DNA of 64,000 nucleotides from a virus (IMGVR_UViG_3300045988_004573:1-64000), one strand, 5' to 3'; shown: positions 12,424 through 38,635, counted from the first letter of the stretch. Translations and numbers: made by a program. Notes: generated by a model from the sequence alone, not told the origin.

Positions 12424-12497
12424 TGGAGAATGAGGGACTTGAACCCTGAACTCCTCCTTGCAAGGGAGGTGTGTTAGCCAATTACACCACAAACCCC
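12424..12497 (-). tRNA. tRNA-Ala(UGC)
   Basis: anticodon arm CCTCC-CUUGCAA-GGAGG; G3-U70 pair present; two U-U mismatches in the acceptor stem. Confidence 0.75.
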
Positions 12498-12502
12498 ATT
12501 AG

Positions 12503-12575
12503 TAGAGTAGACAAGACTCGAACTTGCAATATCTGCATCCCAAATGCAGGAGGTTAACCATTACCCAACTACTCT
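12503..12575 (-). tRNA. tRNA-Pro(UGG)
   Basis: acceptor AGAGTAG/CTACTCT; anticodon loop UUUGGGA. Confidence 0.85.
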
Positions 12576-12581
12576 ATATAG

Positions 12582-12668
12582 CGGAGAGCTATGTACTCGA
12601 AACATATACCCATTATAGGTACAATCTGCTTAGCAGGCAGTCCCTAGAACCCTCTAGGTTAACTCTCC
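12582..12668 (-). tRNA. tRNA-Ser(GCU)
   Basis: acceptor GGAGAGT/GCTCTCC; anticodon loop CUGCUAA; long variable arm; unusual U53-A61. Confidence 0.8.
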
Positions 12669-12856
12669 TTCTTCACATACAAGCTACAATGACACTCATC
12701 ATTCTCTCTATAATCTGAGCAAGGACAATGCTTATCAGTACCTGTATTATGACATGGACACTCACCACCATTTAACTCTACTCTCTTCAAGATAGCATTA
12801 ACCACCTTATCATTAGGGTTAAGCATCCAGCTTTCTTTCCTTAATATCTGTATCAT
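12659..12856 (-). CDS. ferredoxin-thioredoxin-reductase catalytic-chain-like mini-protein
   Basis: 65 aa with CPC-x8-CPC-x8-CHC cysteine pattern (FTR beta-chain-like); embedded between two tRNA-Ser genes. Confidence 0.55.
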   Translation of the reverse strand: MIQILRKESWMLNPNDKVVNAILKRVELNGGECPCHNTGTDKHCPCSDYRENDECHCSLYVKKES

Positions 12857-12858
12857 AG

Positions 12859-12950
12859 AGGAGGATGTCAGACTCGAACTGACACACCACTGTTACATGA
12901 TTACTAGTAGTTTTCAAGACTACTGCCTTACCAATTAGGCTTAATCCTCC
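12859..12950 (-). tRNA. tRNA-Ser(UGA)
   Basis: acceptor GGAGGAT/ATCCTCC; anticodon arm GTAGT-CUUGAAA-ACTAC; long variable arm. Confidence 0.85.
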
Positions 12951-13002
12951 ATTTGCCTACCTACCGCTGTAGGATAGGACTTTGGTTCTGTTATAAGTGT
13001 GC

Positions 13003-13073
13003 AGACTATGAGGGAATTGAACCCTAACCTTCACATTGACAGTGTGATATGCAAACCATTACACTACATAGCC
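13003..13073 (-). tRNA. tRNA-Asp(GUC)
   Basis: acceptor GGCTATG/CATAGTC; anticodon loop CUGUCAA; ends +/-1 nt. Confidence 0.8.
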
Positions 13074-13080
13074 TATATAG

Positions 13081-13152
13081 TAGAGTCACTGGGAATTGAA
13101 CCCAGATTTCTGCCTTGAGAGGGCAGTTGCCTAACCTTTAGTAGATGACTCC
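13081..13152 (-). tRNA. tRNA-Glu(CUC)
   Basis: acceptor GGAGTCA/TGACTCT; anticodon loop CUCUCAA. Confidence 0.8.
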
Positions 13153-13158
13153 ATTTAG

Positions 13159-13230
13159 TAGGGAAGTAAGGACTTGAACCTTATCCTCAGCCTTGAAAGA
13201 GCTACGACCTAACCTATAGTCTACATCCCC
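13159..13230 (-). tRNA. tRNA-Glu(UUC)
   Basis: acceptor GGGGATG/CTTCCCT (one mismatch); anticodon loop CUUUCAA. Confidence 0.8.
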
Positions 13231-13239
13231 ATCTCTTAG

Positions 13240-13311
13240 TACCCCCTGAGGGAATCGAACCCCCATTAAAGGCTTAGAAGACCCTTGCATTATCCATTAT
13301 ACTAAGAGGGC
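13240..13311 (-). tRNA. tRNA-Arg(UCU)
   Basis: acceptor GCCCTCT/AGGGGGT; anticodon loop CUUCUAA. Confidence 0.85.
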
Positions 13312-13319
13312 ATTCCTAG

Positions 13320-13391
13320 TTGGGACTAGAGGACTCGAACCTCTGCTATAAGAGCCAAAATCTCATGTGACTACCACTACACCAAGTCCCA
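13320..13391 (-). tRNA. tRNA-Gln(UUG)
   Basis: acceptor TGGGACT/AGTCCCA; anticodon loop UUUUGGC. Confidence 0.85.
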
Positions 13392-13406
13392 TTCTGAATT
13401 ACTCTG

Positions 13407-13414
13407 CAAAGGTA
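13407..13414 (-). promoter_or_regulatory. Bacteroidetes-type -7 box TACCTTTG heading the tRNA array
   Basis: plus CAAAGGTA inside CTGCAAAGGTAAGCAAAAT, 16 nt upstream of the first tRNA (Gln). Confidence 0.55.
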
Positions 13415-13492
13415 AGCAAAATTTTTGAATCTACCAAATTTTACTGTAAGAAATTTAGTTATTAGAGTCCAGAAGAGTATTAAGTAAGTAGC

Positions 13493-13903
13493 TTAAGTGT
13501 TGATACCCATTAGTTTATCTGCCCACTTCTCAGTATAGAAGTGTGAGTAGCCACTCTCTTCATCACATCCTATATAGTCATTAAGCCAAGCATGGAGTAT
13601 AGATGGCACTCCTATTACTATAAGGTATAGAGGACCTAACATCTTAGATTGCTTTACATGACCACACTCATGTTTGATAGTCATGCCTTGGTCTCTATAA
13701 GTCTGACTAATGAACACATACTTACCTAGTGTTACAGCACCTCCAGCCTTTATCAGATAAGCCTTAGCACCTACTGACTCTATATCATCATTACTTATCT
13801 CTGTAATGATGCTATCCTTCTTGATGTTCTTCCATAACACACCTAATAGATTCTGTGGTAATTGCCATATCCAATCAGATACTATTCTACCTATATTCTT
13901 CAT
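13493..13903 (-). CDS. HExxH zinc-metallopeptidase-like protein
   Basis: 136 aa with IKHECGHVKQ (HExxH). Confidence 0.55.
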   Translation of the reverse strand: MKNIGRIVSDWIWQLPQNLLGVLWKNIKKDSIITEISNDDIESVGAKAYLIKAGGAVTLGKYVFISQTYRDQGMTIKHECGHVKQSKMLGPLYLIVIGVPSILHAWLNDYIGCDEESGYSHFYTEKWADKLMGINT

Positions 13904-14185
13904 ACCTTAATTATTAAGCATAGTATATCCCTAGCCTGTGTTGCCAAGCTTGTTTATATTAGTTCTGCACTTCGTTGGACCCGTTCTTGGTTATACCCCT
14001 TAAAGCATATTTACCTGTACCTTTTCCCAGTAGTATTGGTTATGCTAATCCAACTTATAATAGAACACTTTGTACCAGTATTGGGGACACCTCATTCATA
14101 TATTAGAACTACTACCCAACTTCTGCTCCATTACTTGATTACCTCATGGAGGATAGAGACATACTACCTATCTCTCTGGTAGGTG

Positions 14186-14193
14186 CAAAGGTA
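14186..14193 (-). promoter_or_regulatory. Bacteroidetes-type -7 box TACCTTTG
   Basis: plus CAAAGGTA inside GTGCAAAGGTAAGTATAAT; ~280 nt upstream of the 13903 start with no convincing ORF between. Confidence 0.45.
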
Positions 14194-14436
14194 AGTATAA
14201 TATCTGATATAACCAAATATCTTAAGAAAGTTTAACTATACACTATGGTCTAGGTTGAAAATTTTTTAATTTTTTAATTTTTGAGGTACTTCATTGGTGT
14301 GAGGGGAGTATAATATACTCACACCTCCCCTGCCTCTGGCTTGTTGGGGCTTGTCCCCCGTGGGTTGAAATGATACATACTCACATCAGCCAAGATAGTG
14401 ATAACTTATGTTTAACAATCAAATTACCAAATCATT

Positions 14437-14706
14437 ATGAACAGAACAGATTTAGAGTTTCTGCTTGCATTTGCAGACATTGAAGGCTTAATGAATAAGC
14501 CAGTGACAGAAGTCATCAACCTAGCTACTAAGGCTATCAATGCTAGCACCTTAGATGGTGAAATGGCATCTGCTGATGACTACATTGAGTGCTATCTCTA
14601 TCATTACAGATTGATGAAGGAGTATCATCTGGATGCTGAGGTTAAGACCTTAGTCAGATATGGAGGATATGACTTCTTCATGGCTTGTATAGATTGGGAC
14701 ATCTAG
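14437..14706 (+). CDS. hypothetical early protein
   Basis: 89-aa ORF, first rightward gene after the strand switch. Confidence 0.5.
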   Translation: MNRTDLEFLLAFADIEGLMNKPVTEVINLATKAINASTLDGEMASADDYIECYLYHYRLMKEYHLDAEVKTLVRYGGYDFFMACIDWDI

Positions 14707-14770
14707 TGACTAACTCATTTATGCAGGGTGAGGGGACTAACTCTCACCTTGCCTTTGATAACATTCCTAT

Positions 14771-14953
14771 ATGAAGAAGAATACTGTCATTGCAGTATTG
14801 GTACTGGTAGTGCTGATACTTGCAGGTGTTACTCTCTACCAAAGTGAGAGACTGAGTGCTGCCAAGGCTTATATCTATGACCTTGAGACAGACTATCCTA
14901 AGTACATTGATACCACTTCTGGAGGTGATGCTTACTCAGAGTGGTATAACTAA
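14771..14953 (+). CDS. small membrane protein
   Basis: 60 aa; N-terminal TM helix VIAVLVLVVLILAGVTLY. Confidence 0.45.
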   Translation: MKKNTVIAVLVLVVLILAGVTLYQSERLSAAKAYIYDLETDYPKYIDTTSGGDAYSEWYN

Positions 14954-15018
14954 CTCTTTCCTTATAACTGAATAATTAACTTAGAACCTTATGGTGTATA
15001 GGTCAACCGTGTCATATT

Positions 15019-17599: not shown

Positions 17600-17767
17600 G
17601 TAAATCATTTATACTATTATATAGATGGAAATTCTTGTAATAACAGAGAAGAGAATCTTCAACTGTTATGCCCTAATTGTCATTCTCTTACAGAGAATTT
17701 TGGTAGTAGGAACAAGAATGCTAATAGTGGTAGAAGTATATACTATGGAAGAGCTAGGGCTGATTAG
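17600..17767 (+). pseudogene. HNH endonuclease remnant (C-terminal core only, no start codon)
   Basis: frame reads VNHLYYYIDGNSCNNREENLQLLCPNCHSLTENFG...; opens right after a stop, has no Met, and ends inside tRNA-Arg. Confidence 0.55.
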
Positions 17768-17831
17768 CTCAACTGCACAGAGCGGGGGTTTCCTAAACCT
17801 CAGGTTGGGAGTTGGAGTCTCCCATCAGCCA
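17758..17831 (+). tRNA. tRNA-Arg(CCU) nested inside the interrupted tRNA
   Basis: acceptor GGCTGAT/ATCAGCC; D-stem GCTC/GAGC; anticodon loop UUCCUAA; T-arm GGGAG-TTGGAGT-CTCCC; D-loop lacks GG and the T-loop has G56 (atypical elbow). Confidence 0.65.
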
Positions 17832-18018
17832 CATTTTGCTTAGAGTAGATACTGGTTCGAGTCCAGTTGGAGGTACAATGTCTATTTAACCACTATTTCC
17901 TGACTCTGCTGGGCAAAATGACTGAAAATGTGGTGCTAATGGGTAAGCCATAGTTTCTTGTTTTAGCTTGTACTTTGTTCTTAGAAAAGAAGCAAAGCAA
18001 TTGGGGAATCACATTTGG

Positions 18019-18102
18019 GAATGTATAGCTTAATGGTAAAGCAGCGTGGTACCACTTCAAAACAATGAGAGCAAGATGTAGGTTCAACTCCTACTGCATT
18101 CC
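18019..18102 (+). ncRNA. aberrant 84-nt tRNA-like RNA
   Basis: acceptor GAATGTA/TGCATTC (extendable to 8-9 bp); D-arm GCTT-AATGGTA-AAGC; T-arm GTAGG-TTCAACT-CCTAC; the 34-nt central part does not form a standard anticodon arm and carries GCAG...ACTTCAA as in the insertion family. Confidence 0.5.
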
Positions 18103-18183
18103 TATCTCAATAGTAGTTAAAATGCACAGCCAGCATTGTATCTATGTATCTAACTGGTCATAGTATATGCTGGCACTACTCAT

Positions 18184-18586
18184 GGGGCTGTTTGGTTTTG
18201 ACTGGTGGCTACTGGGTATGAGGACATGCAGAGACTGATGGAGAGACATCAAAACTTTAGGTGGCAACAGAATTTCTGCACCTGTAGCTCTTGCTGCTTA
18301 AGCAATCTACTGAGTTGGTCACTGACTTGGAAACAGAATAGTGACAAAACAAATAAGGTCAAGAAGGAAGTATAATAAGGCTATACCTACTTTCAGTGCT
18401 TAATGGCTGTGATGCACACAGAGGGTGTGACCTTTCAGATTTCTTGCATAGATGAATGCAAGTGGTGGATGATGTTGACAATCCAGTCAACCCCAGCAGA
18501 GAACCAACTGCATAATAAAGTGGTAAGCATGTGTAATCCTTATATTGAGGGCTATTAGGACAGGGGTTCGACTCCCCTCAGCTCCA
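18184..18586 (+). ncRNA. ssrA: tmRNA
   Basis: 5' GGGGCTGTTTGGTTTTGAC; 3' GGACAGGGGTTCGACTCCCCTCAGCTCCA; acceptor with G3-U70; internal tag frame ...GGC AAC AGA ATT TCT GCA CCT GTA GCT CTT GCT GCT TAA (..NRISAPVALAA stop, 18263-18301). Confidence 0.85.
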
Positions 18587-18617
18587 CAATTAACATCAAC
18601 AATTAAATTACATTAGA

Positions 18618-18899
18618 ATGGCAAAGATTGTAAACAATGACAAGGGGTTCAAGGTAATCAGCTTGTCAATCGAAGATGCTGCATCTCTAGGCTTTGGTCT
18701 ATATGGTTCAGGTGCTTGTGTCTGTATGCACTGTAACAAGGGTTGCTTAAGTGGAGACATCTACTATATAGCAGTACTTAATGACACCATGTGCAAGGAC
18801 TGCTATGAGGAGTGGCTCAAAGGTGCTACAAGGTATGTAGATGATGTTCCATATGAGGCACGGAACTTCAACCGTTATAAGGAGGCATTGGGCTTATGA
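18618..18899 (+). CDS. Cys-rich small protein
   Basis: 93 aa with CVCMHCNKGC ... CKDC. Confidence 0.5.
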   Translation: MAKIVNNDKGFKVISLSIEDAASLGFGLYGSGACVCMHCNKGCLSGDIYYIAVLNDTMCKDCYEEWLKGATRYVDDVPYEARNFNRYKEALGL

Positions 18900-19240
18900 T
18901 TATCTTTATATTGGAGTGTATGCTGCTTGGTATAGTAGCTGCACTGACAGGTATCTTCTATAACTACACTCTACAAACAGGTTCTATATTCTGTAAGCTA
19001 GGTGTGATACTGGATGACTGGGCAGAGAATGAGGGTGGCTTCAAAGGTTGGATAGCCAATCCTTTAGGTGCTTGTATATATTGTAGTACTACATGGATAA
19101 CTATATTCATTATGGCTATTTATTGGCTATCATGGAGTAGTTGCCCAGATATAGCTACTATAGTAATATGTACCTTAGCTGCTGTAGGTGTGCAACATCT
19201 TATAATCAGAATATTTGTAGAACTTGACAATAGAGAGTAG
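18896..19240 (+). CDS. membrane protein
   Basis: 114 aa with about 3 TM helices; 4-nt overlap with the upstream ORF. Confidence 0.5.
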   Translation: MIIFILECMLLGIVAALTGIFYNYTLQTGSIFCKLGVILDDWAENEGGFKGWIANPLGACIYCSTTWITIFIMAIYWLSWSSCPDIATIVICTLAAVGVQHLIIRIFVELDNRE

Positions 19241-19385
19241 ATTATGTATTTCAAAGAGGATGAACCAACAGGAGGGCTTATAACAATACCTCTTCCTGAC
19301 CCTACTTATCAGGGTGGTTATTGGTATTAGAGTTAAATTTATGTTAAAGGTAGGTCATTTGTTTGGTAGTATCAAACTTTTGATT

Positions 19386-19393
19386 TACCTTTG
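19386..19393 (+). promoter_or_regulatory. Bacteroidetes-type -7 box TACCTTTG upstream of the Ro60-like gene
   Basis: GATTTACCTTTGCAAAG with TTTG elements about 20-30 nt upstream; 34 nt before the 19428 start. Confidence 0.55.
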
Positions 19394-19427
19394 CAAAGTC
19401 AAACAAGATTAATTTAATTTTAGTGGT

Positions 19428-20840
19428 ATGTGTTCTAAATTAAATCCAAGATTAAAGCCTGCACCTAAGTTTGAGGGCACTCAACTGGCAGGTGGTTATG
19501 GTGCTTTGGCTGCTAGACAATCCAATGTAGCATTGCTTAGAAGAGCAGTGCTGGCTAATCTCCTTTGGGAAGATGTAGCATACATGGATGGAATTTCAGT
19601 AGCCAGTGAGATTAAGAGGTTAATACCTCTGTGCCCTGCTGAGGATGTATATAACATAGCTCTTGAAGCTAGGTTAATGCAGAAGCTGAGACATACTCCA
19701 TTGTTCATAGCAGTGGAAATGTGCAAGTACCCTGAACATAAGTTATTTGTTAAGGACTTGTTACCTAAGATAATCACAAGAGCTGATATGCTCACTGACT
19801 TCTTGGCTATATATTGGAAGGACAAGAAATGCCCTATCTGTAATCAAGCTAAGAAAGGTCTGGCTTTAGCCTTCCACAACTTCAATGAGTATAAGTTGGC
19901 TAAGTATGACAGAGATGCTGCTATCAAGCTCAGAGATGTGATGTTCTTAGTACATACTAAGCCTAGAAACCAATATGAGCAGGAGTTGTTCAATAAGGTA
20001 GCTGAGAGAACTCTTACACCTCCTGAGACATGGGAAGTCATGTTATCTAGAGGTGAGGATAAGAAAGCTACTTGGACTAAGCTCATTACAGAAGGTAAGA
20101 TAGGAGGATTAGCTATGTTGAGGAATATAGCTAATATGCAGAAAGCTAATGTGGATAGAAAGACTATTCAAGATGGTCTTAAAACACTAAGAAGCTCAAT
20201 GCTATTACCTCTTGACTTCTGGAAGGCTGCTAGGATGAACTCAGTATTTGAGAGAGACATTGAGGATGCTATGATTGAGGCATATAAGAACTTACCTAAA
20301 CTTCCTGGTAAGACACTGTTTATAGTGGATGTATCAGGTTCTATGGGTTCTTTAACCTCTGGTAGTTCTCAGTTCAATAGAATGGACCAAGCCTGTGCTA
20401 TGGCTATCTTGGCAGCTAATCAGTGCGAGGACTATGAGCTTGTAGCTACAGCAGGTAATGATGGTTCTAGAAAGAATGCCTCAGAGTGGATTGAATATCC
20501 TAAGAGAGGTTTTGCTCTTGCTCCACAGATAATGGAGACCAGACATAGGATTGGTGGCGGAGGTATATTCACCAGACAATGCCTAGAGTGGTGTAAGGAT
20601 AAGTTCAAAGACAAGAAGTTTGATAGAATTATCATATTCTCAGACTCTCAAGACTGTGACTATCCTGAGAAGAGAGTGCCTAAACCTTTTGGTACTTACA
20701 ACTATATTTGTGATGTGTCAGCACACACAAAAGGTGTAAACTACAGAGGTACATGGACTGCTGAGATAAGTGGTTTCTCGGAGCATTTCATTACATTCAT
20801 TGCAGCAATGGAAGGTGTTCAGAATACCTTTGAAGAATAA
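19428..20840 (+). CDS. rsr: Ro60 ortholog (TROVE domain + vWA/MIDAS)
   Basis: 470 aa; TROVE-like LLWEDVAYMDG, EARLMQKLRHTPLFIAVEM, KYDRDAAIKLRDVMFLVHTKP, LAMLRNIANM; vWA MIDAS FIVDVSGSMGS, GGGG-I-F-T, IIIFSDSQD. These align by eye with recalled human Ro60 motifs ([45 protein letters not shown]). Confidence 0.85.
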   Translation: MCSKLNPRLKPAPKFEGTQLAGGYGALAARQSNVALLRRAVLANLLWEDVAYMDGISVASEIKRLIPLCPAEDVYNIALEARLMQKLRHTPLFIAVEMCKYPEHKLFVKDLLPKIITRADMLTDFLAIYWKDKKCPICNQAKKGLALAFHNFNEYKLAKYDRDAAIKLRDVMFLVHTKPRNQYEQELFNKVAERTLTPPETWEVMLSRGEDKKATWTKLITEGKIGGLAMLRNIANMQKANVDRKTIQDGLKTLRSSMLLPLDFWKAARMNSVFERDIEDAMIEAYKNLPKLPGKTLFIVDVSGSMGSLTSGSSQFNRMDQACAMAILAANQCEDYELVATAGNDGSRKNASEWIEYPKRGFALAPQIMETRHRIGGGGIFTRQCLEWCKDKFKDKKFDRIIIFSDSQDCDYPEKRVPKPFGTYNYICDVSAHTKGVNYRGTWTAEISGFSEHFITFIAAMEGVQNTFEE

Positions 20841-20843
20841 AAC

Positions 20844-20987
20844 AAAGAGTACTGTGTAGTGTTTTGTCAGACTTACTTCATTAACTAAGTGGTATAGTGC
20901 AAAACTTTTAATTTTGATGTCACAGGTTCGAGTCCTGTATGAGATTGGGGAAACCCAAGTCTGACATCTGTTCTCCAGTACTCTTTT
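20844..20987 (+). ncRNA. Y-RNA-like element: tRNA-like cloverleaf enclosed by two long terminal helices
   Basis: starts 4 nt after the rsr stop; 11-bp perfect stem 20844-20854/20976-20986 then TTTT; 8-bp stem 20865-20872/20959-20966; inside: D-arm ACTA-AGTGGTA-TAGT, arm CAAAA-CUUUUAA-TTTTG, T-arm ACAGG-TTCGAGT-CCTGT, plus a GAAA-capped hairpin. Confidence 0.6.
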
Positions 20988-20994
20988 CAATATG

Positions 20995-21125
20995 GAGGAG
21001 TTAGCTCAGTTGGTTAGAGCACTTAATGTTACTCTGTCAAATGTTCCATAGTAATATTGGTGGCAGATAGAGTTACTTCGGAATTGCTAATTCAGTGGTC
21101 ATAGGTTCAAATCCTATACTCCTCC
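20995..21125 (+). tRNA. tRNA gene with ~57-nt insertion after position 26 (anticodon-like loop UUGCUAA)
   Basis: acceptor GAGGAGT/ACTCCTC; canonical D-arm GCTC-AGTTGGTTA-GAGC; T-arm ATAGG-TTCAAAT-CCTAT; insertion ends in AGAGTTACTTC. Confidence 0.6.
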
Positions 21126-21190
21126 CTTACTTTGTTGGATTTTGTGTGTTCTACCTCACTGGTATGTGAATATAGGTGAGGTTTCTACAA

Positions 21191-21328
21191 GGCGGAGTAG
21201 CTAAATGGTAAAGCAACACCCTTACAGGATTTCTCTGGTAAAGCAGTAGTGAGTTGTCAGGGTTACTTCAAGGTTATAGCATTAGTTTTGGGTACTAAAG
21301 TATGTAAGTTCGAGTCTTACCTCCGCCA
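21191..21328 (+). tRNA. tRNA-Pro(UGG)-like gene with ~64-nt insertion between D-arm and anticodon stem
   Basis: acceptor GGCGGAG/CTCCGCC; D-arm GCTA-AATGGTA-AAGC; intact arm TTAGT-UUUGGGU-ACTAA; T-arm GTAAG-TTCGAGT-CTTAC; insertion carries GCAGTAGTGAGTTGTCAGGGTTACTTCAAG. Confidence 0.65.
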
Positions 21329-21532
21329 CTTATTACCTACCTCACCTAGCGTAGTTGTACAGAGTGAGACCTAATAGGAGGCATCAAAGGAACTATCCTA
21401 GTCACACTGGTGTGCTGTTCAGTGAGTGAGAAAATGAGCAGCCCCGAAGCATAGTGGGGATAATGTCAAGGAGTACCATCCTTAAGCAGCTATGTAAAAC
21501 TGGTTGACAATCTGGAAAGACAGATAATAAAT

Positions 21533-31216: not shown

Positions 31217-32218
31217 ATGGCATTTGCATCTGGAGAACATAGCATTACCCTAGAAGATGTCCTAGCAAGAACTACGGAATTTGACATACTATACCATTAT
31301 TTCAATGTAAGTGAACTGCCTACTATAATACATTCACCTTTGAGGCAGGACAACAGACCTTCATTTGGTCTATATACATTAGATGGTAAGAGGGTACATT
31401 ACACTGACTTAGCTACTAAGGATAGAGGTGGACTGTTTGATTTGCTTATGAAGTATTGGGGGGAGAGTTACAAAGATATGCTTAATCATCTTTGGGAGGA
31501 CTTACCCAATTTCTCCAATGCCAATGTCCAGTTTAATAGTGTGAAGAGTGAGAGGTCTTACCAGTACCAGTCTCTCAAGTCAAGGAACATAGACCTTCAA
31601 TGTAAGGTCAGAGAGTGGAGGGATTATGATTTAGAATACTGGGCTTCTTATGGTATATCACTAGAGTGGCTCAAGTATGCTGACATATATCCCATATCGC
31701 ATAAGATTGTAATTAGGGATGGTCAGAGATATGTATTTGGAGCTGACAAGTATGCCTATGCCTATGTAGAGAGGAAAGAGGGTAAAGTAACCCTCAAGAT
31801 ATACCAGCCTTATAATAAAGGTGGGTATAAGTGGAGCAACAGGCATGACAGGAGTGTCATATCACTATGGACTAAAGTACCTGAGTATGGAGATAAAATC
31901 TGCATATGCTCATCCATGAAGGATGCCTTGTGCTTATGGGCTAACACAGGAATACCAGCACTAGCTATTCAAGGTGAAGGCTATGGTATGAGTGATACTG
32001 CTATTGGTGAACTCAAAAGGAGGTATAGCAAGATATACATTCTCCTAGACAATGATGAAGCTGGACTGCAAGATGCAGTGAAACTGTCAGAGTCTACTGG
32101 GTTCACCAATATAGTATTACCCAAAGTGAATGATGCTAAAGACATCAGTGACTTATACAAATCTCTTCAAGACCCTAATAGGTTTAGGGGTATTATCATG
32201 CCCTTATTTAAGGACTAA
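31217..32218 (+). CDS. TOPRIM-domain DNA primase
   Basis: ICICSSMKDALCLW and ILLDNDEAG (DxD) TOPRIM signatures. Confidence 0.65.
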   Translation: MAFASGEHSITLEDVLARTTEFDILYHYFNVSELPTIIHSPLRQDNRPSFGLYTLDGKRVHYTDLATKDRGGLFDLLMKYWGESYKDMLNHLWEDLPNFSNANVQFNSVKSERSYQYQSLKSRNIDLQCKVREWRDYDLEYWASYGISLEWLKYADIYPISHKIVIRDGQRYVFGADKYAYAYVERKEGKVTLKIYQPYNKGGYKWSNRHDRSVISLWTKVPEYGDKICICSSMKDALCLWANTGIPALAIQGEGYGMSDTAIGELKRRYSKIYILLDNDEAGLQDAVKLSESTGFTNIVLPKVNDAKDISDLYKSLQDPNRFRGIIMPLFKD

Positions 32219-32270: not shown

Positions 32271-32957
32271 ATGGAAACTCGTAAAGTAACTATCATCAAT
32301 TCCAAGACCCAGAGCCAGAAGGTAATTCAGGACTCTAAGGCTACAACTCTCGGTGAACTCAAACAGGAAATGAGGGAGAGAGGTATTGACTACACAGGCA
32401 TGACTTTCTTTGAAGGTCACATGAGAGCTGAACTCAAGGATGATGCAGCTCCTCTGCCTACCAACATCCCCTATAAGGGTCAGGTAGTCAATGACTTGAC
32501 ATTCATGTTGACTGCACCTGAGAAGAAGGTTAAGTCTGGTGCTATGTCAAGAGCAGAAGCCTATGCAGAAATCAAGAAGAGAGGCTTGCAGGGTGCTTGT
32601 GTGGATAAGTTCGGTAAGAACTTCACACAGTGTTCCACTGCTGACCTCATCTCTCTGATTGAGAAGAACTCTACCAAGGCAGCTCCTGCACCTAAAGCTG
32701 AGAAGCCTGTAGAAGTAGCAGCTCCTACTGCTCCTGCAAAGGCAGAGGAAGCTCCTGTAGCACCTGAAACTCCTGCCACTGGATGTAACTGTTCAAAGGC
32801 TCTTGCTATCCTCACAGAGGCTCTCTATGAGAATGACACCATTGAGGAGGGGACCTATGATGCAGTCATGGCTACTCTCAAAGGTGGTTCTTACAATGCA
32901 CCTGAGAAGATGAACAAGAGGGAGATTGATGAGATGTTTGGCTTTGTTGAAAGATAA
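32271..32957 (+). CDS. candidate ubiquitin-like (beta-grasp) protein with HeH/SAP-like middle and a LKGG motif near the C-terminus
   Basis: N-terminal KVTIINSK..QKVIQDSKATTLGELKQEMRERGIDYTGMTFFEG...LTFMLTA has a beta-grasp-like strand/helix pattern; P/A-rich linker; ATLKGG at 32877-32888 followed by a 22-aa tail. Confidence 0.45.
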   Translation: METRKVTIINSKTQSQKVIQDSKATTLGELKQEMRERGIDYTGMTFFEGHMRAELKDDAAPLPTNIPYKGQVVNDLTFMLTAPEKKVKSGAMSRAEAYAEIKKRGLQGACVDKFGKNFTQCSTADLISLIEKNSTKAAPAPKAEKPVEVAAPTAPAKAEEAPVAPETPATGCNCSKALAILTEALYENDTIEEGTYDAVMATLKGGSYNAPEKMNKREIDEMFGFVER

Positions 32958-32976
32958 GGTCAGATTGAACAACACA

Positions 32977-33017
32977 GGTGGAGGGTGAGTAGTATGCTTG
33001 CCCTTCACCTTTTTTTT
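32977..33017 (+). terminator. rho-independent terminator
   Basis: 9-bp stem GGTGGAGGG/CCCTTCACC, 15-nt loop, then T8. Confidence 0.7.
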
Positions 33018-33026
33018 ATACACAGT

Positions 33027-34340
33027 ATGAGTGAAGAAGTAACTAATAAGGTAAGGGAGTTATATGACAACATCATGTACTTCCCTAATAAGGTTCTTAG
33101 CATATTCAATGACTTCTTTGGAGAACAGAGAGTGGATATGCAGGGATTCTGGGGCTTTGATGAGTTCCTACGTTCAATGTCTGAGGACAGGCTTAGTTCT
33201 TTCTTCTCCAGTAAGAGTGCTGTACTTAGTAGTCCAGAGTTCAGAAGTGCCAGTAAAGAGAATAAGGCTGTCATAGAAGATATGCTTGATAATGGTGCTT
33301 TGGATAGTGCTGTAACCAGTGATGAAGCACTTGCTACATACTTCCTACCTATAATGTTTACTGCTGTAATGCAGATTATGCCACAAGGCTTCATTCTTGT
33401 GCATTTCCCTCATGTAAGGGTTACTAATGAGAATGACAGGTTTGTGGATATAAACCATCTATGGGTTAAAGTAGGCATAAAGGCAAGTGGTGCAGGCATG
33501 GGTTACTTTGCTGTAAATAGGAGTGAGTATGAACTCTCTCATATGAAGGCAGACTATATGCACAGTCATGTACCAGGAATACCATTTGATAGGCTTACAG
33601 AGTTCAAGTCTCCTTGTCTGGGCAGTGGACCTATCAGAAGTACAGTAGCTACTCTTGCAGTGGAATATGATGAGGCTATATGGCAGTTGTTCTGTCTTGA
33701 ATTGGACAAGTATGTCAGGGTTGAAAGTATCTCTGGAGTACCTTACAGGTATCTGGAGAAGATAGGTACAGGTGGTGGTACAACTAATGGAGAGACTGAC
33801 TTCTCTATGCAGTCTACCACATTCAATGACTACAATACTATATTCTCTAAAGAGGATATGAAGGACTTCGTAAGGCATCTGATAAGAGACAAGAAACTCA
33901 AGTTCAACTTCATCAGAGGAAGCTATGGCTTTGCAATGTCCTACCTTGACTATAGAATACTCATTAGTAATGAGTTCATCAAGTGGTACAACCTGAGATA
34001 TAACTTAGGAACTTCTACTGCAAGTTATAATAACTTAGTTAGTAGGGGAATACTGAAAGAATGTATCATCAACAATGGTAAGATACAGTATTTCAGGAAC
34101 ACAGGGAGAAGTGGTGAGGACTATGGCAGGTATGAGGGTGCTGAGGTGTGTGTATTCAAAGGCAGACCTATCACCATACATATAGTGGATAGTTCTACTG
34201 ATACACTTAATAAAACAGTATTAGTCAGTGCAGGTATTGCTGAGGAAATAGCTAAAGCAGTGCTTACAATAGTAAATTACAAGTATGGAAGAGAACAAAG
34301 AGAAGAAGCTGGAATTAGTACACCAGCAATCTATCTATAA
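33027..34340 (+). CDS. candidate E2-like (UBC-fold) protein
   Basis: 437 aa from the ATG after the terminator; HFPHVRV and YMHSHVPG...FKSPCLGSG (Cys at 33615-33617) loosely resemble the E2 HPN...C layout; sits where E2 sits in Ubl-E2-JAB-E1 operons. Confidence 0.4.
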   Translation: MSEEVTNKVRELYDNIMYFPNKVLSIFNDFFGEQRVDMQGFWGFDEFLRSMSEDRLSSFFSSKSAVLSSPEFRSASKENKAVIEDMLDNGALDSAVTSDEALATYFLPIMFTAVMQIMPQGFILVHFPHVRVTNENDRFVDINHLWVKVGIKASGAGMGYFAVNRSEYELSHMKADYMHSHVPGIPFDRLTEFKSPCLGSGPIRSTVATLAVEYDEAIWQLFCLELDKYVRVESISGVPYRYLEKIGTGGGTTNGETDFSMQSTTFNDYNTIFSKEDMKDFVRHLIRDKKLKFNFIRGSYGFAMSYLDYRILISNEFIKWYNLRYNLGTSTASYNNLVSRGILKECIINNGKIQYFRNTGRSGEDYGRYEGAEVCVFKGRPITIHIVDSSTDTLNKTVLVSAGIAEEIAKAVLTIVNYKYGREQREEAGISTPAIYL

Positions 34341-35487
34341 GATGGTAATCCCTCAGGAGGTTGAGAAGAAGATAAGACTTCTGTGTAGGGAGATACACAA
34401 TGTGGAATGGTCTGGAGTACTGTTCTACAAGGTAAGTGGTTCATTTGAGGATAAGTCTTTGACAATCACTTGTGTAGACTTGTTCCAGATGGATGAAGGT
34501 ACTGGAGGATATACTGAATATGATATGTCCCCAGATGTCATGGGTTATATGGTAGACCATCCTGAGCTGCTTGATGCAGGTGTATATCAGGGACTTATCC
34601 ATAGTCATAACAACATGGCTACATTCTTTAGTGGTACTGATACAGCTACCTTGCAGTCAGAAGGCAGTGATATGAACCACTTTGTATCACTGATTGTGAA
34701 CAATGCTGGTAAATATACAGCAGGAGTGACTAGGAAGGCTAAGCTCAAACAGACAGTCAATGAGGAGTTCACCTATCCCACATGGGGTGATGAGAGAGTA
34801 TCTGGCAATAGAACCTTTACAGTAGAGAAGGAGTATATCCAATGGTTTAACCTTGACATTGAGATTGAAGGAGTCAGTAATGACTTTGAAGAGGAAATGC
34901 TTGCAAGGATTAAGGAGATTAGGGCAACTAAGTCTAGTAAGAGGAACATTGAGAATGTCAGAAGTCCTTACTATGGCGGAGGCTATAAGAAAGAGGAATA
35001 TGGCAAGCACCCAATAGGTTCTTATGGTAATCCTAAGGGATATACAGTACCTGCTGGACCAGCTAATACTCCTATCAAGAGAGAGGTTAAGCAACCTACA
35101 CTCTTTGATGATACTAATGAGGAGTTTATGATTGACTATGAGAAGTTCAAACTCAATGAGGAGATAGTGGACTGGGTGGTTAAGCAGACCATCACTTGTA
35201 GTGTAATCATTCCTAACTCCAGTAACATTGATGTAGAGAAGTGGGCTAGGTCTATGGATTCTCTGTATAAGAAGAGATTTGCAGATAAGAAGGAGTTTGA
35301 AGCCTTTGCATCAAACTTTGTAGACTTTGTGGTTAACTATACAGAAGACCCAGAGGCTGCTGCTTTCTTGGATGCTACAGAGATGGCTGCTGTATTGGCT
35401 TATCAGGTAAGAGAGAAACTGAACACCCTGCCTAAGAATGAATGGCTGGATGCTTGGATGGAATTGTATGATGATTATATACTGTAA
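34285..35487 (+). CDS. JAB/MPN+ (JAMM) metalloprotease
   Basis: upstream Glu in NVEWSG and a complete HSHNNMATFFSGTD (HxHx7Sx2D) at 34600-34641; an alternative start at 34342 directly follows the upstream stop. Confidence 0.8.
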   Translation: MEENKEKKLELVHQQSIYKMVIPQEVEKKIRLLCREIHNVEWSGVLFYKVSGSFEDKSLTITCVDLFQMDEGTGGYTEYDMSPDVMGYMVDHPELLDAGVYQGLIHSHNNMATFFSGTDTATLQSEGSDMNHFVSLIVNNAGKYTAGVTRKAKLKQTVNEEFTYPTWGDERVSGNRTFTVEKEYIQWFNLDIEIEGVSNDFEEEMLARIKEIRATKSSKRNIENVRSPYYGGGYKKEEYGKHPIGSYGNPKGYTVPAGPANTPIKREVKQPTLFDDTNEEFMIDYEKFKLNEEIVDWVVKQTITCSVIIPNSSNIDVEKWARSMDSLYKKRFADKKEFEAFASNFVDFVVNYTEDPEAAAFLDATEMAAVLAYQVREKLNTLPKNEWLDAWMELYDDYIL

Positions 35488-35489
35488 GT

Positions 35490-36662
35490 ATGGAAGATAT
35501 AGTAAGTGAAGTAACTGCTCAGGCTCTTAATCAGTTAGCTGATAGAAGCGTAGAGCAGGCTCGTCAAGAGTTTGAAAGAGCTATGGAGGAAGATACCAAT
35601 GCACTTCCTATCAATGCCTTTGGTGGAACTCTGTCTCCTGTAGGTTCTGCTGGAGAGTTACACTATATATGTACTCTTCTTAGAGACCATAGGGCAGAGC
35701 TGTCAGTTGATGAATTGATAGATAGAGACAATCTTGTCTATAATGTGCAGATAAATGAGGAGAATGGTCAGCACCATGACTATTGGGTCAATGACTATTG
35801 GCACAATCAGTTACTCATAGCTGCTGGAGTTATGGATGAGGTAATGCCTGAGGAGGCTCAGTTGAGTCCAGAAGAGGAAGCAATGTTAGCAGCAGCATTG
35901 GAGAGTGAGCATCAAGAGATACCTGTAAATTCACAGACAATCACTGTAGATGAGACTACAAGTAGATTCAGTGGTGCTATATGGTATGAGCAAATACAAC
36001 AGCAGACTGTCACTTTGGCAGGTGTTGGAGGTATTGGCAGTTATGTAGGTTTCCTGTTAGGTAGATTGAAGCCTCAGAGACTTATCATATATGACCCTGA
36101 CAGGGTTGAGACTGTCAATATGTCAGGTCAGTTGTATGGTCAGACAGATGTTGGTAATTATAAGAGTTTAGCCCTTGCCAATATGGTCAGAAACTATGCT
36201 AACTATAACAATATAGTGGCATTGAATGACAGGTTTGAGGCTAACTCTGAGGCTACTGACATTATGATATGTGGCTTTGACAATATGACAGCCAGAAGGA
36301 CATTCTATGAGAAGTGGAAGCAGAAGGTACTGTCCTATCCTGCTGGTAGTGATAACAGGAAGAAGTGTTTGTTCATAGATGGAAGATTGGCAGCAGAAGA
36401 GTTCCAAGTACTGTCCATTCAAGGAGATGATGAAAGAGCTATGGTGGAGTATGAGGATAAGTGGCTGTTCAGTGATGCAGAAGCTGAGGAGACTATATGC
36501 TCCTATAAGCAGACTACTTTCATGGCTAACATGATAGCATCAGTGATGGTCAATGTCTTTGTGAACTTCGTGGCTAACCAGTGTGGTCCTATCATAGACA
36601 GGGATGTTCCTTTCTTCATATCCTATGATGCAAGTACAATGTTTACTAAAGTTGAAATGTAA
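35490..36662 (+). CDS. ThiF/MoeB/E1-like adenylating enzyme
   Basis: Rossmann LAGVGGIGSYVG (36021-36041), IIYDPDRVETVNMSGQ, CGFDNMTARR, downstream Cys in ETICSYKQTT; ~150-aa acidic N-terminal extension. Confidence 0.8.
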   Translation: MEDIVSEVTAQALNQLADRSVEQARQEFERAMEEDTNALPINAFGGTLSPVGSAGELHYICTLLRDHRAELSVDELIDRDNLVYNVQINEENGQHHDYWVNDYWHNQLLIAAGVMDEVMPEEAQLSPEEEAMLAAALESEHQEIPVNSQTITVDETTSRFSGAIWYEQIQQQTVTLAGVGGIGSYVGFLLGRLKPQRLIIYDPDRVETVNMSGQLYGQTDVGNYKSLALANMVRNYANYNNIVALNDRFEANSEATDIMICGFDNMTARRTFYEKWKQKVLSYPAGSDNRKKCLFIDGRLAAEEFQVLSIQGDDERAMVEYEDKWLFSDAEAEETICSYKQTTFMANMIASVMVNVFVNFVANQCGPIIDRDVPFFISYDASTMFTKVEM

Positions 36663-37462
36663 TGCAAAGAGTGAGTAGTAGAATGAGTTATACTATTGAG
36701 CATATGTATAACTCAAGGGGAGATATAGCTCCCTATAGCAGTCCAGATGCTAGACTAGTCAATTACTCTATGCACACTGTGTTCCCATCATTCTTTAGGG
36801 TTTCCTTACAAGGAGATAAGATTGAGCTTCCTATATTTGCCAAGGAGTATGTGCAAGGCAAGCTCCTTGAAAGGTTGGAAAATAGAGGAAACCCTATGAG
36901 AAGAAGTGACATTATCATACACTTCCACATTGTAGAGAGTAACTATGCTCCCTATAGGACAGCAGATGCTTTAATCAGGAATCTGGTGGAGTTCAACTCC
37001 AGTAGAAGAGGTATGTATCTAACTGCCAGTACCAATAAAGGAGAGACATATCATGGATGTAATGGTACTATATTCAATAAGGATATGGTTCCACTTATTT
37101 TCAATGTCATAGAATGTGAGATTGTGGATAATACTCTTGTATATAAGAGAGTCAAGAGTTACATACATCCATCAGTATTCTATTCTGATGGTACTGTGGA
37201 GAAGTGTATAGCCAACAAGATTATCCCATTTGTCATGCAGAATGGTATAGAGATAAGACCCTATGACTCAAGGGTAGTTGATAACATCAGCTATGTGGGT
37301 ACAGGAAGAATCAGGAAGACTATACCAGAACTGTCAGTTGCCAATGTAGCTGACAGGTTCTTCTGTAAGCCTATTCTTCCCAGTGTGGCATATAGTGATG
37401 ATGACATCAATGATATGCTGAACAGGAACATTGATGATGTATTCAATATCATTGGGTTATGA
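36662..37462 (+). CDS. hypothetical protein translationally coupled to the E1-like gene
   Basis: 266 aa; ATG overlaps the E1 stop (TAATG). Confidence 0.5.
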   Translation: MQRVSSRMSYTIEHMYNSRGDIAPYSSPDARLVNYSMHTVFPSFFRVSLQGDKIELPIFAKEYVQGKLLERLENRGNPMRRSDIIIHFHIVESNYAPYRTADALIRNLVEFNSSRRGMYLTASTNKGETYHGCNGTIFNKDMVPLIFNVIECEIVDNTLVYKRVKSYIHPSVFYSDGTVEKCIANKIIPFVMQNGIEIRPYDSRVVDNISYVGTGRIRKTIPELSVANVADRFFCKPILPSVAYSDDDINDMLNRNIDDVFNIIGL

Positions 37463-38169
37463 CACTTGAGGAATACTTTGGTGATTGGCTTAGAGTGATT
37501 GACAGAGCAGAGTTGGATAAGGTATTGACACTCCTTAACAGGATGTATAGGGTAAAACCTATATGTCCTGCACAGGAGAATGTATTCAAGGCATTCAACT
37601 TGTGTAAGTACCGTGACTGTAAGGTGGTATTCATAGGTCAAGACCCATACCCTCAGAAGGGTGTGGCTACTGGCATATTGTTTGGGAATGATGCAAGTAC
37701 TAGAGAAGATGACTGGTCTCCTTCATTAAAAATTGTTAGAGATTCAGTTATAGACTTGCGCAGACCACATAATTTGATTACCTTTGACCCCACCTTAGAG
37801 TCATGGGCTAAGCAAGGCATCCTTATGATTAACTCTGCTTTGACCGCGGAGATGAATAAGGTAGGCTCACACACTATGTTGTGGAGACCTTTCATCTCAA
37901 AGCTGCTAAAGAAGATGTCTGAGTATGACACTGGTATGATATATGTGTTGTTTGGTGGTACTGCCCGTACCTTCAAGCCATATATAGGAAAGTATAATGA
38001 TGTGATAGAGATAGAGCATCCTGCATGCTTTGCAAGAATCAACCAAGACATGCCCTCAGATATATTCTATGAGATTAACAAACTATTAAAAGCAAGGTAT
38101 AACACCACTATTAAATGGTATGATGAGGAACAGTGCAATGGAGATATGGAAGAGTATAACAGGCTATGA
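37459..38169 (+). CDS. uracil-DNA glycosylase superfamily protein
   Basis: VVFIGQDPYPQKGVATGILFG (GQDPY motif) and IEHPACFAR (HPSPL-like). Confidence 0.7.
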   Translation: MTLEEYFGDWLRVIDRAELDKVLTLLNRMYRVKPICPAQENVFKAFNLCKYRDCKVVFIGQDPYPQKGVATGILFGNDASTREDDWSPSLKIVRDSVIDLRRPHNLITFDPTLESWAKQGILMINSALTAEMNKVGSHTMLWRPFISKLLKKMSEYDTGMIYVLFGGTARTFKPYIGKYNDVIEIEHPACFARINQDMPSDIFYEINKLLKARYNTTIKWYDEEQCNGDMEEYNRL

Positions 38170-38635
38170 TAACTTATATGAAGTAAGTAACCTTGGTAGA
38201 GTAAAGTCTCTTAAGAGAGTACCTAATACTATCTTGAAACCGTCTAGTAATGGTAGGTATTTGCAACTAGTACTGCACAAGGATGGCAGTAAGAGTAAGA
38301 AATACATACACAGACTAGTGGCAGAGGCTTTTATATCTAACCCTTATGGCTTTTCAGAGGTAAATCATAAGGATGAGGACAAAACCAACAATAATGTATC
38401 TAACTTGGAATGGTGTGATAGCACATACAATAACACATATAATCAGAGACATATCAAATCAAGAGAGTCTTTGAAGAAACCAATTATAGTTAGAGATATT
38501 AGTGGGGAGATTATAGCGGAGTATTCTTCAATATCCCAAGCATCTATTGCTCTTAATATGGACAAGAGCAATATATCAAAATGCTGTAGAGGTGTTATGT
38601 GTTCCTATAAAAGTTTAACATTTTCCTATAAATAG
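38120..38635 (+). CDS. HNH homing endonuclease with NUMOD4-like N-terminus and C-terminal HTH
   Basis: WKSITGYDNLYEVSNLGRVKS (NUMOD4-like), EVNHKDEDKTNNNVSNLEW (HNH), SISQASIALNMDKSNISKCC (IENR1-like); overlaps the UDG 3' end. Confidence 0.75.
   Translation: MMRNSAMEIWKSITGYDNLYEVSNLGRVKSLKRVPNTILKPSSNGRYLQLVLHKDGSKSKKYIHRLVAEAFISNPYGFSEVNHKDEDKTNNNVSNLEWCDSTYNNTYNQRHIKSRESLKKPIIVRDISGEIIAEYSSISQASIALNMDKSNISKCCRGVMCSYKSLTFSYK

Follow-up and report, generated by a model that had tools for sequence, protein, structure and literature searches.

Four adjacent genes in the replication block of a crAss-like phage, here termed A to D, can tentatively be read as a phage-encoded system that activates and transfers a ubiquitin-like protein (Ubl) and works without a canonical E2. 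For the phages concerned, which are crAss-like phages of the Steigviridae type together with related Flavobacterium and environmental phages, we consider this reading possible, if somewhat short of evenly probable. The genes lie at 32271-37462 of a viral stretch of 64,000 nucleotides (nt) (IMGVR_UViG_3300045988_004573:1-64000; the whole of it is called the window below), which is from a crAss-like phage of the Steigviridae type, with cr106_1 and crAss001 as its closest GenBank relatives. Five co-directional open reading frames (ORFs), all on the + strand, occupy the positions that a preliminary description of this DNA had assigned to them: A (32271-32957, 228 amino acids (aa)), B (33027-34340, 437 aa), C (34285-35487, 400 aa), D (35490-36662, 390 aa) and E (36662-37462, 266 aa). 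C is a JAMM metallopeptidase and D an E1-like adenylating enzyme, A contains the candidate modifier, and B is a conserved Cys/His protein in the position of an E2.

The A-B-C-D order is retained over deep divergence. The GenBank phage records that have gene A are also those that have gene B, 45 in all; every one of them holds the E1-like gene too, and the synteny expected among related phages is indeed kept in 45/45 of these matching phages, in the IMG/VR loci and in Fipvunavirus. The 45 records include crAss001, 24 PhiCrAssBcn phages, DAC15, DAC17, Kehishuvirus and Kolpuevirus isolates, six cr* genomes, bajarodcaudo virus and Dulem virus 41; the six GenBank loci inspected are Steigviridae or unclassified relatives, and the same order is found in 84 plus 80 IMG/VR loci. 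In crAss001, the primase gene gp80 is followed by gp79 (A), gp78 (B), gp77 (C, 'metalloprotease'), gp76 (D, 'ThiF'), gp75 (E) and gp74 (uracil-DNA glycosylase, UDG). In Flavobacterium phage Fpv2 (Fipvunavirus), the primase and UDG genes are followed by gp58 (A-like, ...KQVKSGG), gp57 (B-like), gp56 and gp54, which are a JAB gene split by an endonuclease gene, and gp53 (ThiF), after which comes the non-homologous gp52. Two orders, Prim-UDG-A-B-C-D and Prim-A-B-C-D-E-UDG, cover essentially all of the 80 E1-anchored loci; UDG follows E in gut phages and precedes A in Fpv-type phages. Since UDG has moved and E is restricted to the gut branch, A-B-C-D stands out as an invariant block. GenBank labels these genes one by one as 'thiamine biosynthesis protein', 'metalloprotease domain containing protein', 'E1 enzyme family protein' or 'hypothetical protein'. 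The suggestion that such a module was undescribed for Crassvirales agrees with the searchable literature, in which no paper treating these genes as a system was found; coverage was incomplete and an earlier description is possible.

Gene E does not share this constancy. Its coupling to the E1 gene is as initially reported, the D stop codon TAA (36660-36662) overlapping the E ATG at 36662 by one base, and E in turn overlaps the UDG gene by 4 nt. E is present in gut-type (Steigviridae-type) loci and absent from the Fpv-type and environmental branch; it evolves fast, with eight invariant columns among six homologues, and has no match in Pfam, PHROGs, NCBIfam, PADLOC or PDB. Given this weak conservation and its absence from the Fpv-type branch, E is better regarded as peripheral or optional than as part of the core, and its proposed inclusion in the module is withdrawn.

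The C protein carries a JAB/MPN+ (JAMM) metallopeptidase domain at aa ~20-220, followed by a C-terminal helical domain of no assigned function. Its catalytic motif comprises E41-W-S-G and HSHNNMATFFSGTD at aa 106-119 (nt 34600-34641), in which the residues are spaced as H106-S-H108-x7-S116-x2-D119. With the full E...HxHx7Sx2D set in place (E41, H106, H108, S116 and D119), the protein is predicted to be a competent peptidase, in line with the active-looking JAMM protease noted at the outset. HxHx7Sx2D is intact in 71/78 related loci, the exceptions being genes split by insertions and one gene at a contig end. The match to Pfam Prok-JAB covers 102/114 profile positions (E=3.6e-4, 20.8 bits, cut-off 25), that to PADLOC JAB is weak (E=0.012), and among PDB sequences Rpn11 aligns across the motif at E=0.81. 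As a separate observation, the JAB gene is interrupted at or near the HxH-coding sequence in Fpv2 (L006 4710-7002) and in L125, L129, L142, L149, L150 and L163. The Fpv2 insertion bears an endonuclease gene on the opposite strand, and a Fpv3-type contig (L096) has the gene whole; these interruptions look like mobile intron or homing-endonuclease insertions recurring in several lineages.

Directly after C, the D protein consists of a hypervariable N-terminal region of ~150 aa and an E1-like domain of the ThiF/MoeB/UBA superfamily (aa ~157-390). GVGGIGS (nt 36021-36041), DPDRVETVNMSGQ and FDNMTARR, by which a ThiF/E1-like enzyme had been recognized here, are all present, and the match to Pfam PF00899 ThiF lies well above the cut-off (E=1.1e-16, 61.1 bits versus 28.1, aa 166-364). 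A profile built from 7 divergent D homologues finds UBA5 (6e-12) and MccB (8e-11) in the PDB, and also PaaA, TcdA, ThiF, MoeB, Uba1, Cap2 and BubCD. Invariant in these homologues are R159, GxGG (178-181), D202 and D204 (of D202xD204), K225, D264 and R269 (of D264-N-x3-R269), and Cys337 in ICSYKQT (nt 36498-36500). By analogy to MoeB/ThiF, these residues may provide the nucleotide-binding GxGxxG, the ribose/Mg Asp, the phosphate Lys and the N-terminal Arg of an ATP-binding site, and D looks catalytically competent, as judged from its motifs. Cys337 lies 73 residues past the catalytic Asp, presumably in roughly the place of ThiF C184 and MoeB C187, as far as a comparison of positions goes. D reaches no specific E1 subfamily among the NCBIfam ThiF equivalogs, PRTRC_ThiF, MoeB, TcdA, 6A-MBL cap2_3 and SAMP E1. 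Its 16 NCBIfam matches are far below the cut-offs and confined to the N-terminal half (best, ThiF PRK08644, 58.2 bits versus 159), PRTRC_ThiF is matched at 38.5 bits versus a cut-off of 144.75, and the PADLOC matches to Cap2-type E1-E2 (2e-11) and BilD (2e-5) involve only the generic nucleotide-binding part; otherwise only ThiF and a weak ApbA match were obtained.

D aligns to other phages from residue ~144 only (aa 144-390). The N-terminal extension before it (window 35490-35940, with equivalents in L001, L003 and L004) ranges from 0 to ~165 aa, is hypervariable in sequence even where the catalytic domains are ~70% identical, and may be a specificity or arms-race element. ThiF-only matches in Xanthomonas, Erwinia and Acinetobacter jumbo phages and in plasmids were set aside as generic MoeB/ThiF relatives without A, B or C. 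In one of these, Xanthomonas phage PhiXhv-12 (L007 4956-5818), a short ThiF-like protein is followed by an overlapping 70-aa ORF, near genes for an 892-aa hypothetical protein and for topoisomerase; this may be an unrelated pair, without A-, B- or C-like genes.

The candidate modifier is the N-terminal domain of A. Its nomination as a Ubl is sustained by comparative genomics: the small N-terminal domain bears the hallmarks of a Ubl precursor, for which the working definition in prokaryotes is a short protein whose Gly is followed by a brief tail and whose gene neighbours encode an E1-like enzyme and a JAB (PMC1779556). This 90-aa putative pro-Ubl (32271-32540, + strand) ends in KKVKSG (nt 32523-32540), the candidate processing and activation site. 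Across diverse A homologues, G90 is invariant and S89 nearly so, and basic residues precede the Gly; the conserved domain measures 76-90 aa up to this Gly (76 aa in environmental forms) and falls in the ~70-100 aa class, with a conserved Gly that is or can become the C-terminus. The consensus end is K-S-G, S-G-G occurring only in Fpv-type phages and N-G or L-G in a few. A directly adjoins B-JAB-E1 on the upstream side in all GenBank phages that have it, and the same is seen in practically all of those among the 80 IMG/VR loci whose sequence extends far enough upstream.

Variants of A were surveyed in 80 diverse IMG/VR loci, fetched via the E1-like gene and annotated with our own hidden Markov models, together with the gut phages, and the domain was found in three states. 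In most lineages it is fused to a variable C-terminal part. In three environmental lineages (L117, L125 and L126), it stands alone directly upstream of B as an ORF of 77-83 aa, ending ...KTKSGK, ...KVKSGNKN or ...KVKSGNEKKH, so that the stop codon comes 1-5 residues past the invariant Gly. In two gut lineages, namely cr106_1 (L003) and a bajarodcaudo-like phage (L083 and L166, which are one contig), an HNH homing endonuclease gene splits A right after the Gly, leaving the ends KSGKF and RSGIC. The invariant Gly is thus located at a natural ORF or domain boundary. The C-terminal part (32544-32957, + strand) is entirely missing from the stand-alone forms and is optional across lineages. It comprises a segment of the pattern R-x-E-x-Y..I...GL......FG(K/R)N(F/Y)TQ directly after Gly90, a low-complexity Pro/Ala/Glu-rich linker and an acidic tail with aromatic residues at its end (EIDEMFGFVER in the window). 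Residues R94, N117, T119, Q120 and L126 are invariant in alignment A2 and the rest of this part varies. From this pattern, and with no database match, aa 93-133 may be of a helix-extended-helix, DNA-binding-like type.

A different site had been suggested for processing, an LKGG motif 22 residues from the end of A. The motif exists (aa 203-206, nt 32877-32888, GG at 32883-32888), but it is not conserved: close relatives of A, at 98% and 90% identity, have LKDG and LKGD in its place and crAss001 has LKGT, so that LKGG is a chance motif and is rejected as the processing site. K-S-Gly90 replaces it as the conserved candidate site. As for the fold, Pfam gives no β-grasp match for whole A proteins and none to Prok_Ub. 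Among 30 A-domain sequences, all Pfam matches are sub-threshold; DIX, found in 4/30 (best E=0.028), is the only family matched by more than two members, and single matches concern DUF348 ('G5-linked-Ubiquitin-like', 0.065) and Gln-synt_N ('beta-Grasp domain', 0.055). The DIX domain of DVL2, a domain that we take to have the β-grasp fold, is among the weak PDB matches of the A-domain profile, and a crude propensity profile of the A domain gives a pattern like the one obtained for ubiquitin by the same method. These matches are a weak hint that the N-terminal domain of A may have a β-grasp fold.

B belongs to a large family with a strictly conserved Cys/His centre. Searches with B returned 1963 matches in a 90%-clustered collection and, at the level of 50% identity, 2297 clusters (E≤0.001), 825 of them with E≤1e-30. 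The family alignment singles out YMHSH (nt 33555-33569, + strand, containing Ser180-His181), Cys197-x-Gly (nt 33615-33623) and E233-S234..G237.P239. YMHSH and PCLGSGP, which holds Cys197 (nt 33615-33617), are the most conserved part of the family. In 150 diverse representatives, N134, S180, H181, C197, G199, G201, P202, L210, E225, E233, S234, G237, P239 and F281 are invariant. When environmental lineages are added, the universal core is N134, R165, Y177, S180-H181, C197-x-G199, E233-S234, G237 and P239; C223, E225 and P202 are not universal, and H179 is Gln in some of these lineages. A four-ligand zinc site (H179, H181, C197 and C223) is excluded, since H179 can be replaced by Gln and C223 is not universal, and a Cys/His-type active site fits B better for the same reason. 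The invariant Ser-His and Cys-x-Gly are as expected of a thiol enzyme, to judge by conservation. An assignment to deaminases was discarded as noise, one member having matched DAAD at E=0.028 with the PCxxC motif absent.

The resemblance of the HSHV...SPCLGSG segment to the layout of an E2 had been pointed out before; the motif is real, with S180, H181 and C197 invariant in all lineages examined, but it comes with no E2 similarity by fold or profile. The His181-Cys197 spacing is 16 residues, and the His/Asn-to-Cys spacing of E2 enzymes is about 8-10; a Cys with an upstream His is present in B, though this feature is not E2-specific. An AlphaFold2 (AF2) model built on 28 sequences was of low quality in the motif region (predicted local distance difference test (pLDDT) score of 69.5). 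A second AF2 model, from the 150 representatives, reached a pLDDT of 91.7 and a predicted template modelling score of 0.80. Its predicted element order of helix, four strands, loop with the His, Cys and helices is superficially E2-like, with long strands, and the last ~11 residues are predicted to be disordered (pLDDT<50). In 185,579 species genomes, B was found on only three metagenome-assembled contigs, 45-48% identical over the matched stretch, one being the 94-kb IMG/VR contig of L062 and another only 1.1 kb long; as the three are probably mis-binned phage contigs, B looks phage-specific.

A terminator-like element separates A from the enzyme genes. Between A and B, at 32976-33020 on the + strand, lies a hairpin with a 16-bp GC-rich stem and a U-run that resembles an intrinsic terminator; an alternative GTG start of B at 32985 falls inside this hairpin and is unlikely to be used. 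The position of the hairpin and U-run is kept in 6/7 genomes examined (the window, crAss001, bajarodcaudo virus, cr106_1, DAC15 and Fpv2), with a different sequence in each; the equivalents are at L001 3006-3066, L002 3378-3450, L003 8205-8293, L004 7742-7804 and L006 (Fpv2) 3501-3571. This conservation by position implies regulated transcription between the modifier gene and the enzyme genes and suggests that the level of A differs from that of B-C-D, A probably being the more abundant. As a further observation on the locus, B and C overlap by 56 nt in the window (34285-34340) and by up to 62 nt in relatives (L001 4340-4401), in different frames that are both protein-conserved in gut phages. 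The dual-coding stretch encodes the B tail ...G.S.P..Y[LI] and the C N-terminus MEE...LELV....K.VIP.EV, and is likely to serve translational coupling.

On the basis of these features, we propose the following pathway. A would be made in excess, its gene being followed by the conserved terminator before the enzyme genes, and its N-terminal 76-90-aa domain would be the modifier; the terminator position, kept in six of seven genomes, fits such a substrate-to-enzyme expression ratio. The JAMM protein C would cut directly after Gly90 to expose a C-terminal glycine, removing the long C-terminal part in gut phages or a tail of 1-5 residues from the stand-alone forms. D would then adenylate the exposed glycine with ATP and probably load the modifier on its loop Cys337, from which the modifier would pass to Cys197 of B, with His181 assisting; B holds the place that an E2 takes in cellular operons. 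From B, the modifier would go to a target protein, and C may also reverse the modification. The constant primase and UDG neighbours, together with the DNA-binding-like segment fused to the modifier, invite the speculation that phage DNA replication is where the target, or the fragment released, has its role. The most specific form of this proposal, in which the Steigviridae-type phages of the gut and their aquatic relatives run their own Ubl conjugation as a fixed part of the replication programme, with a domain freed by the JAMM, activated by the E1 and moved by B as a new non-UBC Cys/His 'E2-analogue' onto phage or host replication proteins, strikes us as doubtful. The preliminary description had credited the phage with a full set of such components; the term overstates the evidence, which is for a Ubl-like domain, a JAB, an E1-like enzyme and the Cys/His protein B.

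Among known systems, the Ubl/E1/E2/JAB cassettes of mobile elements, including PRTRC, come nearest to the module (Iyer, Burroughs & Aravind 2006, PMC1779556). As in those cassettes, a small Gly-ended modifier is encoded beside an E1-like gene and often a JAB, on a mobile element and with a largely obscure function, and a Bacteroidota plasmid carries a PRTRC cassette arranged as Prok_Ub, unknown, Prok-E2_D, ThiF, an order that resembles A, B, C and D. The module differs from the PRTRC type in that A has no Prok_Ub match, the B family has no Prok-E2 match or UBC fold and D stays far from the PRTRC_ThiF cut-off. Moreover, its modifier has a Ser-Gly end and in most cases continues into a large C-terminal region, and the module resides in the replication block of virulent phages, not on an integrative and conjugative element or plasmid. 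The lambda/T1 protein TAPI consists of a Ubl, a linker and a C-terminal domain and adjoins TAPK, a JAB (with NlpC/P60) predicted to cut at the conserved Gly (PMC1779556). The architecture of A and C realizes the same idea: a Ubl-like domain, a conserved Gly, a linker and a second domain beside a JAB. However, TAPI and TAPK have no E1-like enzyme and belong to a tail-assembly block, whereas the present module includes an apparently active E1 and an obligatory B and lies in the replication region.

Likeness to the Bil system (BilABCD), to type II of the cyclic-oligonucleotide-based antiphage signalling system (CBASS; Cap2/Cap3) and to Bub lies in an E1-like enzyme with a reactive loop residue, an (iso)peptidase that matures or removes the modifier, and an adenylated protein C-terminus; at the level of the domain, D resembles the Cap2-type and BilD models, and among PDB sequences its profile finds Cap2 and BubCD. 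These are host-encoded defences with a recognizable UBC-type E2, which in Cap2 is fused to the E1, and CBASS also has a cGAS/DncV-like nucleotidyltransferase (CD-NTase), whereas in the module no E2 and no CD-NTase were found, and the module is phage-encoded and fixed in a core region of the phage. With the trios QbsE/QbsC/QbsD, CysO/MoeZ/Mec+ and TtuB/TtuC, the module shares a pro-Ubl that would be JAMM-trimmed and then adenylated by a ThiF/MoeB-type enzyme. QbsE/CysO/TtuB-type carriers end in Gly-Gly, and their E1 enzymes carry or recruit a rhodanese or persulfide donor. In such trios a dedicated sulfur-accepting enzyme is encoded nearby, and no such family was detected in the module.

Several observations weigh against a Ubl activation and transfer system. 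B was rejected as a member of the UBC-fold E2 enzymes, as which the ORF at 33027 had been tentatively put forward. When the two B models were compared by Foldseek with the PDB (350,542 chains), neither had a significant match, the best E being about 1, and there was no E2 among the 50 best matches listed, even for the high-confidence model; the structures of Cap2 and BubCD should be in this fold library, since the PDB sequence copy that was searched holds both. The B profile found no relative among PDB sequences, a search of BFVD with the B model returned only its own family (in crAss-like and podovirus metagenome-assembled genomes) and a protein of 420 aa, probably the homologue from Fpv, and B has no family match in Pfam, NCBIfam or PADLOC. 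For 30 diverse B core segments, Pfam gave no Prok-E2 or UQ_con match at E up to 10. A hhalign comparison with the Prok-E2_D protein of the PRTRC cassette reached a probability of 0.5%, its best local alignment pairing PFDRLTEFKSPCLGSG of B with the Cys motif PFPNISSNGQVCLGSA of Prok-E2_D, which is suggestive and not significant; the neighbouring 338-aa PRTRC protein gave no significant result. We thus do not file B as an E2, and it may still work like one. Its part in transfer is argued from its position and its Cys/His pair, and B might just as well be a peptidase, a sulfurtransferase or some unrelated protein. On the modifier side, the A-domain profile against PDB sequences, and hhalign against Ub, NEDD8, SUMO1, ThiS, MoaD, Urm1 and Prok_Ub, gave no result better than five negative controls, the reference and control sequences having been typed in, except for Prok_Ub, which was taken from L092. 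Additionally, the candidate modifier ends in Ser-Gly and has no di-glycine terminus. D has no Arg of the NLxRQ motif and reads N-M-S-G-Q instead (N-T-G-G-Q in Fpv2), with G213 and Q214 invariant. All genomes with the module are related phages of conserved gene order, so that the adjacency partly reflects shared ancestry, even though UDG and E moved. The conserved A-B terminator means that A may sit in the transcription unit of the primase and not in an operon with B-C-D. Finally, we know of no target, E3 or conjugate of this module.

Three other explanations deserve weighing. In the one that we regard as unlikely rather than remote, the A domain would be a sulfur carrier, trimmed by the JAB and adenylated by D to yield a C-terminal thiocarboxylate, with B as a Cys-persulfide sulfurtransferase or sulfur-inserting enzyme and, as the sink, 2-thiouridine at position 34 (s2U34) of the phage tRNA-Lys(UUU), tRNA-Glu(UUC) and tRNA-Gln(UUG), or DNA, or a cofactor. 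These three tRNAs normally carry 2-thiouridine, QbsD reportedly trims QbsE, and Mec+ is said to act on CysO. The best NCBIfam matches of D are ThiF-type sulfur-carrier adenylyltransferases, albeit all far below the cut-offs, the Cys of B is invariant, and the 29 tRNA genes of the window include Lys-UUU, Glu-UUC and Gln-UUG. Moreover, clusters of JAB, E1-like and ThiS/MoaD-like genes have been linked to sulfur assimilation (PMC1779556). D, however, has no rhodanese domain, and A, B and E match no Pfam or NCBIfam family and hence no PP-loop ATPase (TtuA/Ncs6/MnmA-type), cysteine desulfurase or radical-SAM enzyme. The confident B model has no PDB match and hence none to a rhodanese or known sulfurtransferase fold. 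No rhodanese, cysteine desulfurase, PP-loop ATPase or MoaE/ThiG-type synthase was found among the module proteins, although host enzymes could substitute. The modifier is also mostly fused to a large DNA-binding-like C-terminal part, and the module always lies among replication genes, ~11 kb or more from the tRNA genes.

Counter-defence, which we hold to be very unlikely, would have the JAB, and perhaps the E1-like protein, strip or hijack Cap2-made cGAS conjugates (CBASS type II) or Bil-type Ubl conjugates on phage proteins, A and B being unrelated replication proteins that are neighbours by chance. It would account for the top defence-library matches of D and the weak PADLOC JAB match of C, and it suits the fast evolution of gene E and the N-terminal 150 aa of D, as in arms-race genes, and the antiphage role of known bacterial E1/E2/JAB systems (PMC11601596; PMC10097602). 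Yet the Cap2 and BilD matches reflect the generic nucleotide-binding part of the E1 fold, and deconjugation needs a JAB alone and not a conserved active E1 whose Cys is invariant. Genes directed against host defence tend to be accessory and patchily distributed, whereas this block is fixed across Bacteroides and Flavobacterium hosts and diverse IMG/VR sources, and the Gly-ended domain of A, a constant neighbour, co-varies in architecture with the module. Just as unlikely in our view is a CBASS-like arrangement with no separate Ubl, in which D would adenylate the disordered tail of B (or another protein), the JAB would reverse this, and the A domain would be a non-conjugated docking or regulatory part of a replication protein; in a variant, the substrate of D would be a small molecule or peptide, like those adenylated by MccB and PaaA. 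Cap2 acts on the C-terminus of its CD-NTase. In most gut phages, the disordered tail of B (~11 residues) closes with a conserved pair of an aromatic and an aliphatic residue (Y-L or Y-I), MccB and PaaA are among the top PDB sequence relatives of D beside UBA5, and the A-B terminator sets A apart from B-C-D. Nevertheless, the B C-terminus is not conserved beyond the gut branch (...GHSE in Dulem virus, ...QVPL in Fpv2) and has no terminal Gly or Ala, MccB-type systems use a short precursor peptide ending in Asn and have no JAB, and a docking domain leaves unexplained why the Gly90 boundary is invariant everywhere and near-terminal in the stand-alone forms.

The surroundings of the module are those of a replication block. 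Directly upstream lies a DNA primase gene (31217-32218, + strand; Toprim matches in Pfam, PHROG 'DNA primase' family at 5e-40), and downstream of E a UDG family gene (37459-38169, + strand; Pfam UDG, E=1.4e-9). In the gut-phage loci L165, L166, L168, L169, L170 and L174, the UDG gene downstream of E is in two pieces ~0.5-1.1 kb apart (for example L170 10448-10663 and 11570-12070), which suggests a further intron or homing-endonuclease insertion in a conserved replication gene. Right after UDG, the window has an HNH/NUMOD-type homing endonuclease gene at 38120-38635 (+ strand; MEIWKSITGYDNLYEVSNLGRVK...). Its homology to the endonucleases inserted in A after Gly90, those of cr106_1 (L003 7281-7796) and of the L083/L166 contig (L083 6888-7406), is clear, and given this homology one endonuclease family seems to shift between sites of the replication block. 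ARAGORN places the tRNA genes in a dense array of 25 on the - strand (8440-13391) and a group of 4 on the + strand (17758-21329), spanning most amino acids. The GC skew flips near 14 kb (window ~13000-15000) from about -0.2 to +0.15-0.25, coinciding with the switch from - strand genes (the tRNA array) to the + strand replication block, and presumably marks the boundary of divergent transcription modules.

Ubl conjugation in the bacterial world has so far meant host defence (CBASS type II, Bil and Bub) and uncharacterised mobile-element cassettes. A fixed core version in virulent phages would show the other side of that conflict, or a housekeeping use of Ubl proteins in phage replication, and this in a lineage to which the crAss001-type phages belong, whose abundance in the human gut is very high. 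The proposal gives a testable function to four conserved genes, gp76-gp79 of crAss001 and their counterparts in DAC15, PhiCrAssBcn and the Fpv phages, and cultured systems exist in crAss001 with B. intestinalis, DAC15 with B. thetaiotaomicron and the Fpv phages with F. psychrophilum. If Gly90 is cleaved and conjugated, trypsin would leave a Ser-Gly remnant (+144.05 Da) on target lysines. If the sulfur carrier is instead the true explanation, the module would be linked to phage tRNA modification, which would also be new for phages. Should B receive the modifier, it would represent a structurally new answer to the E2 step, an independent invention.

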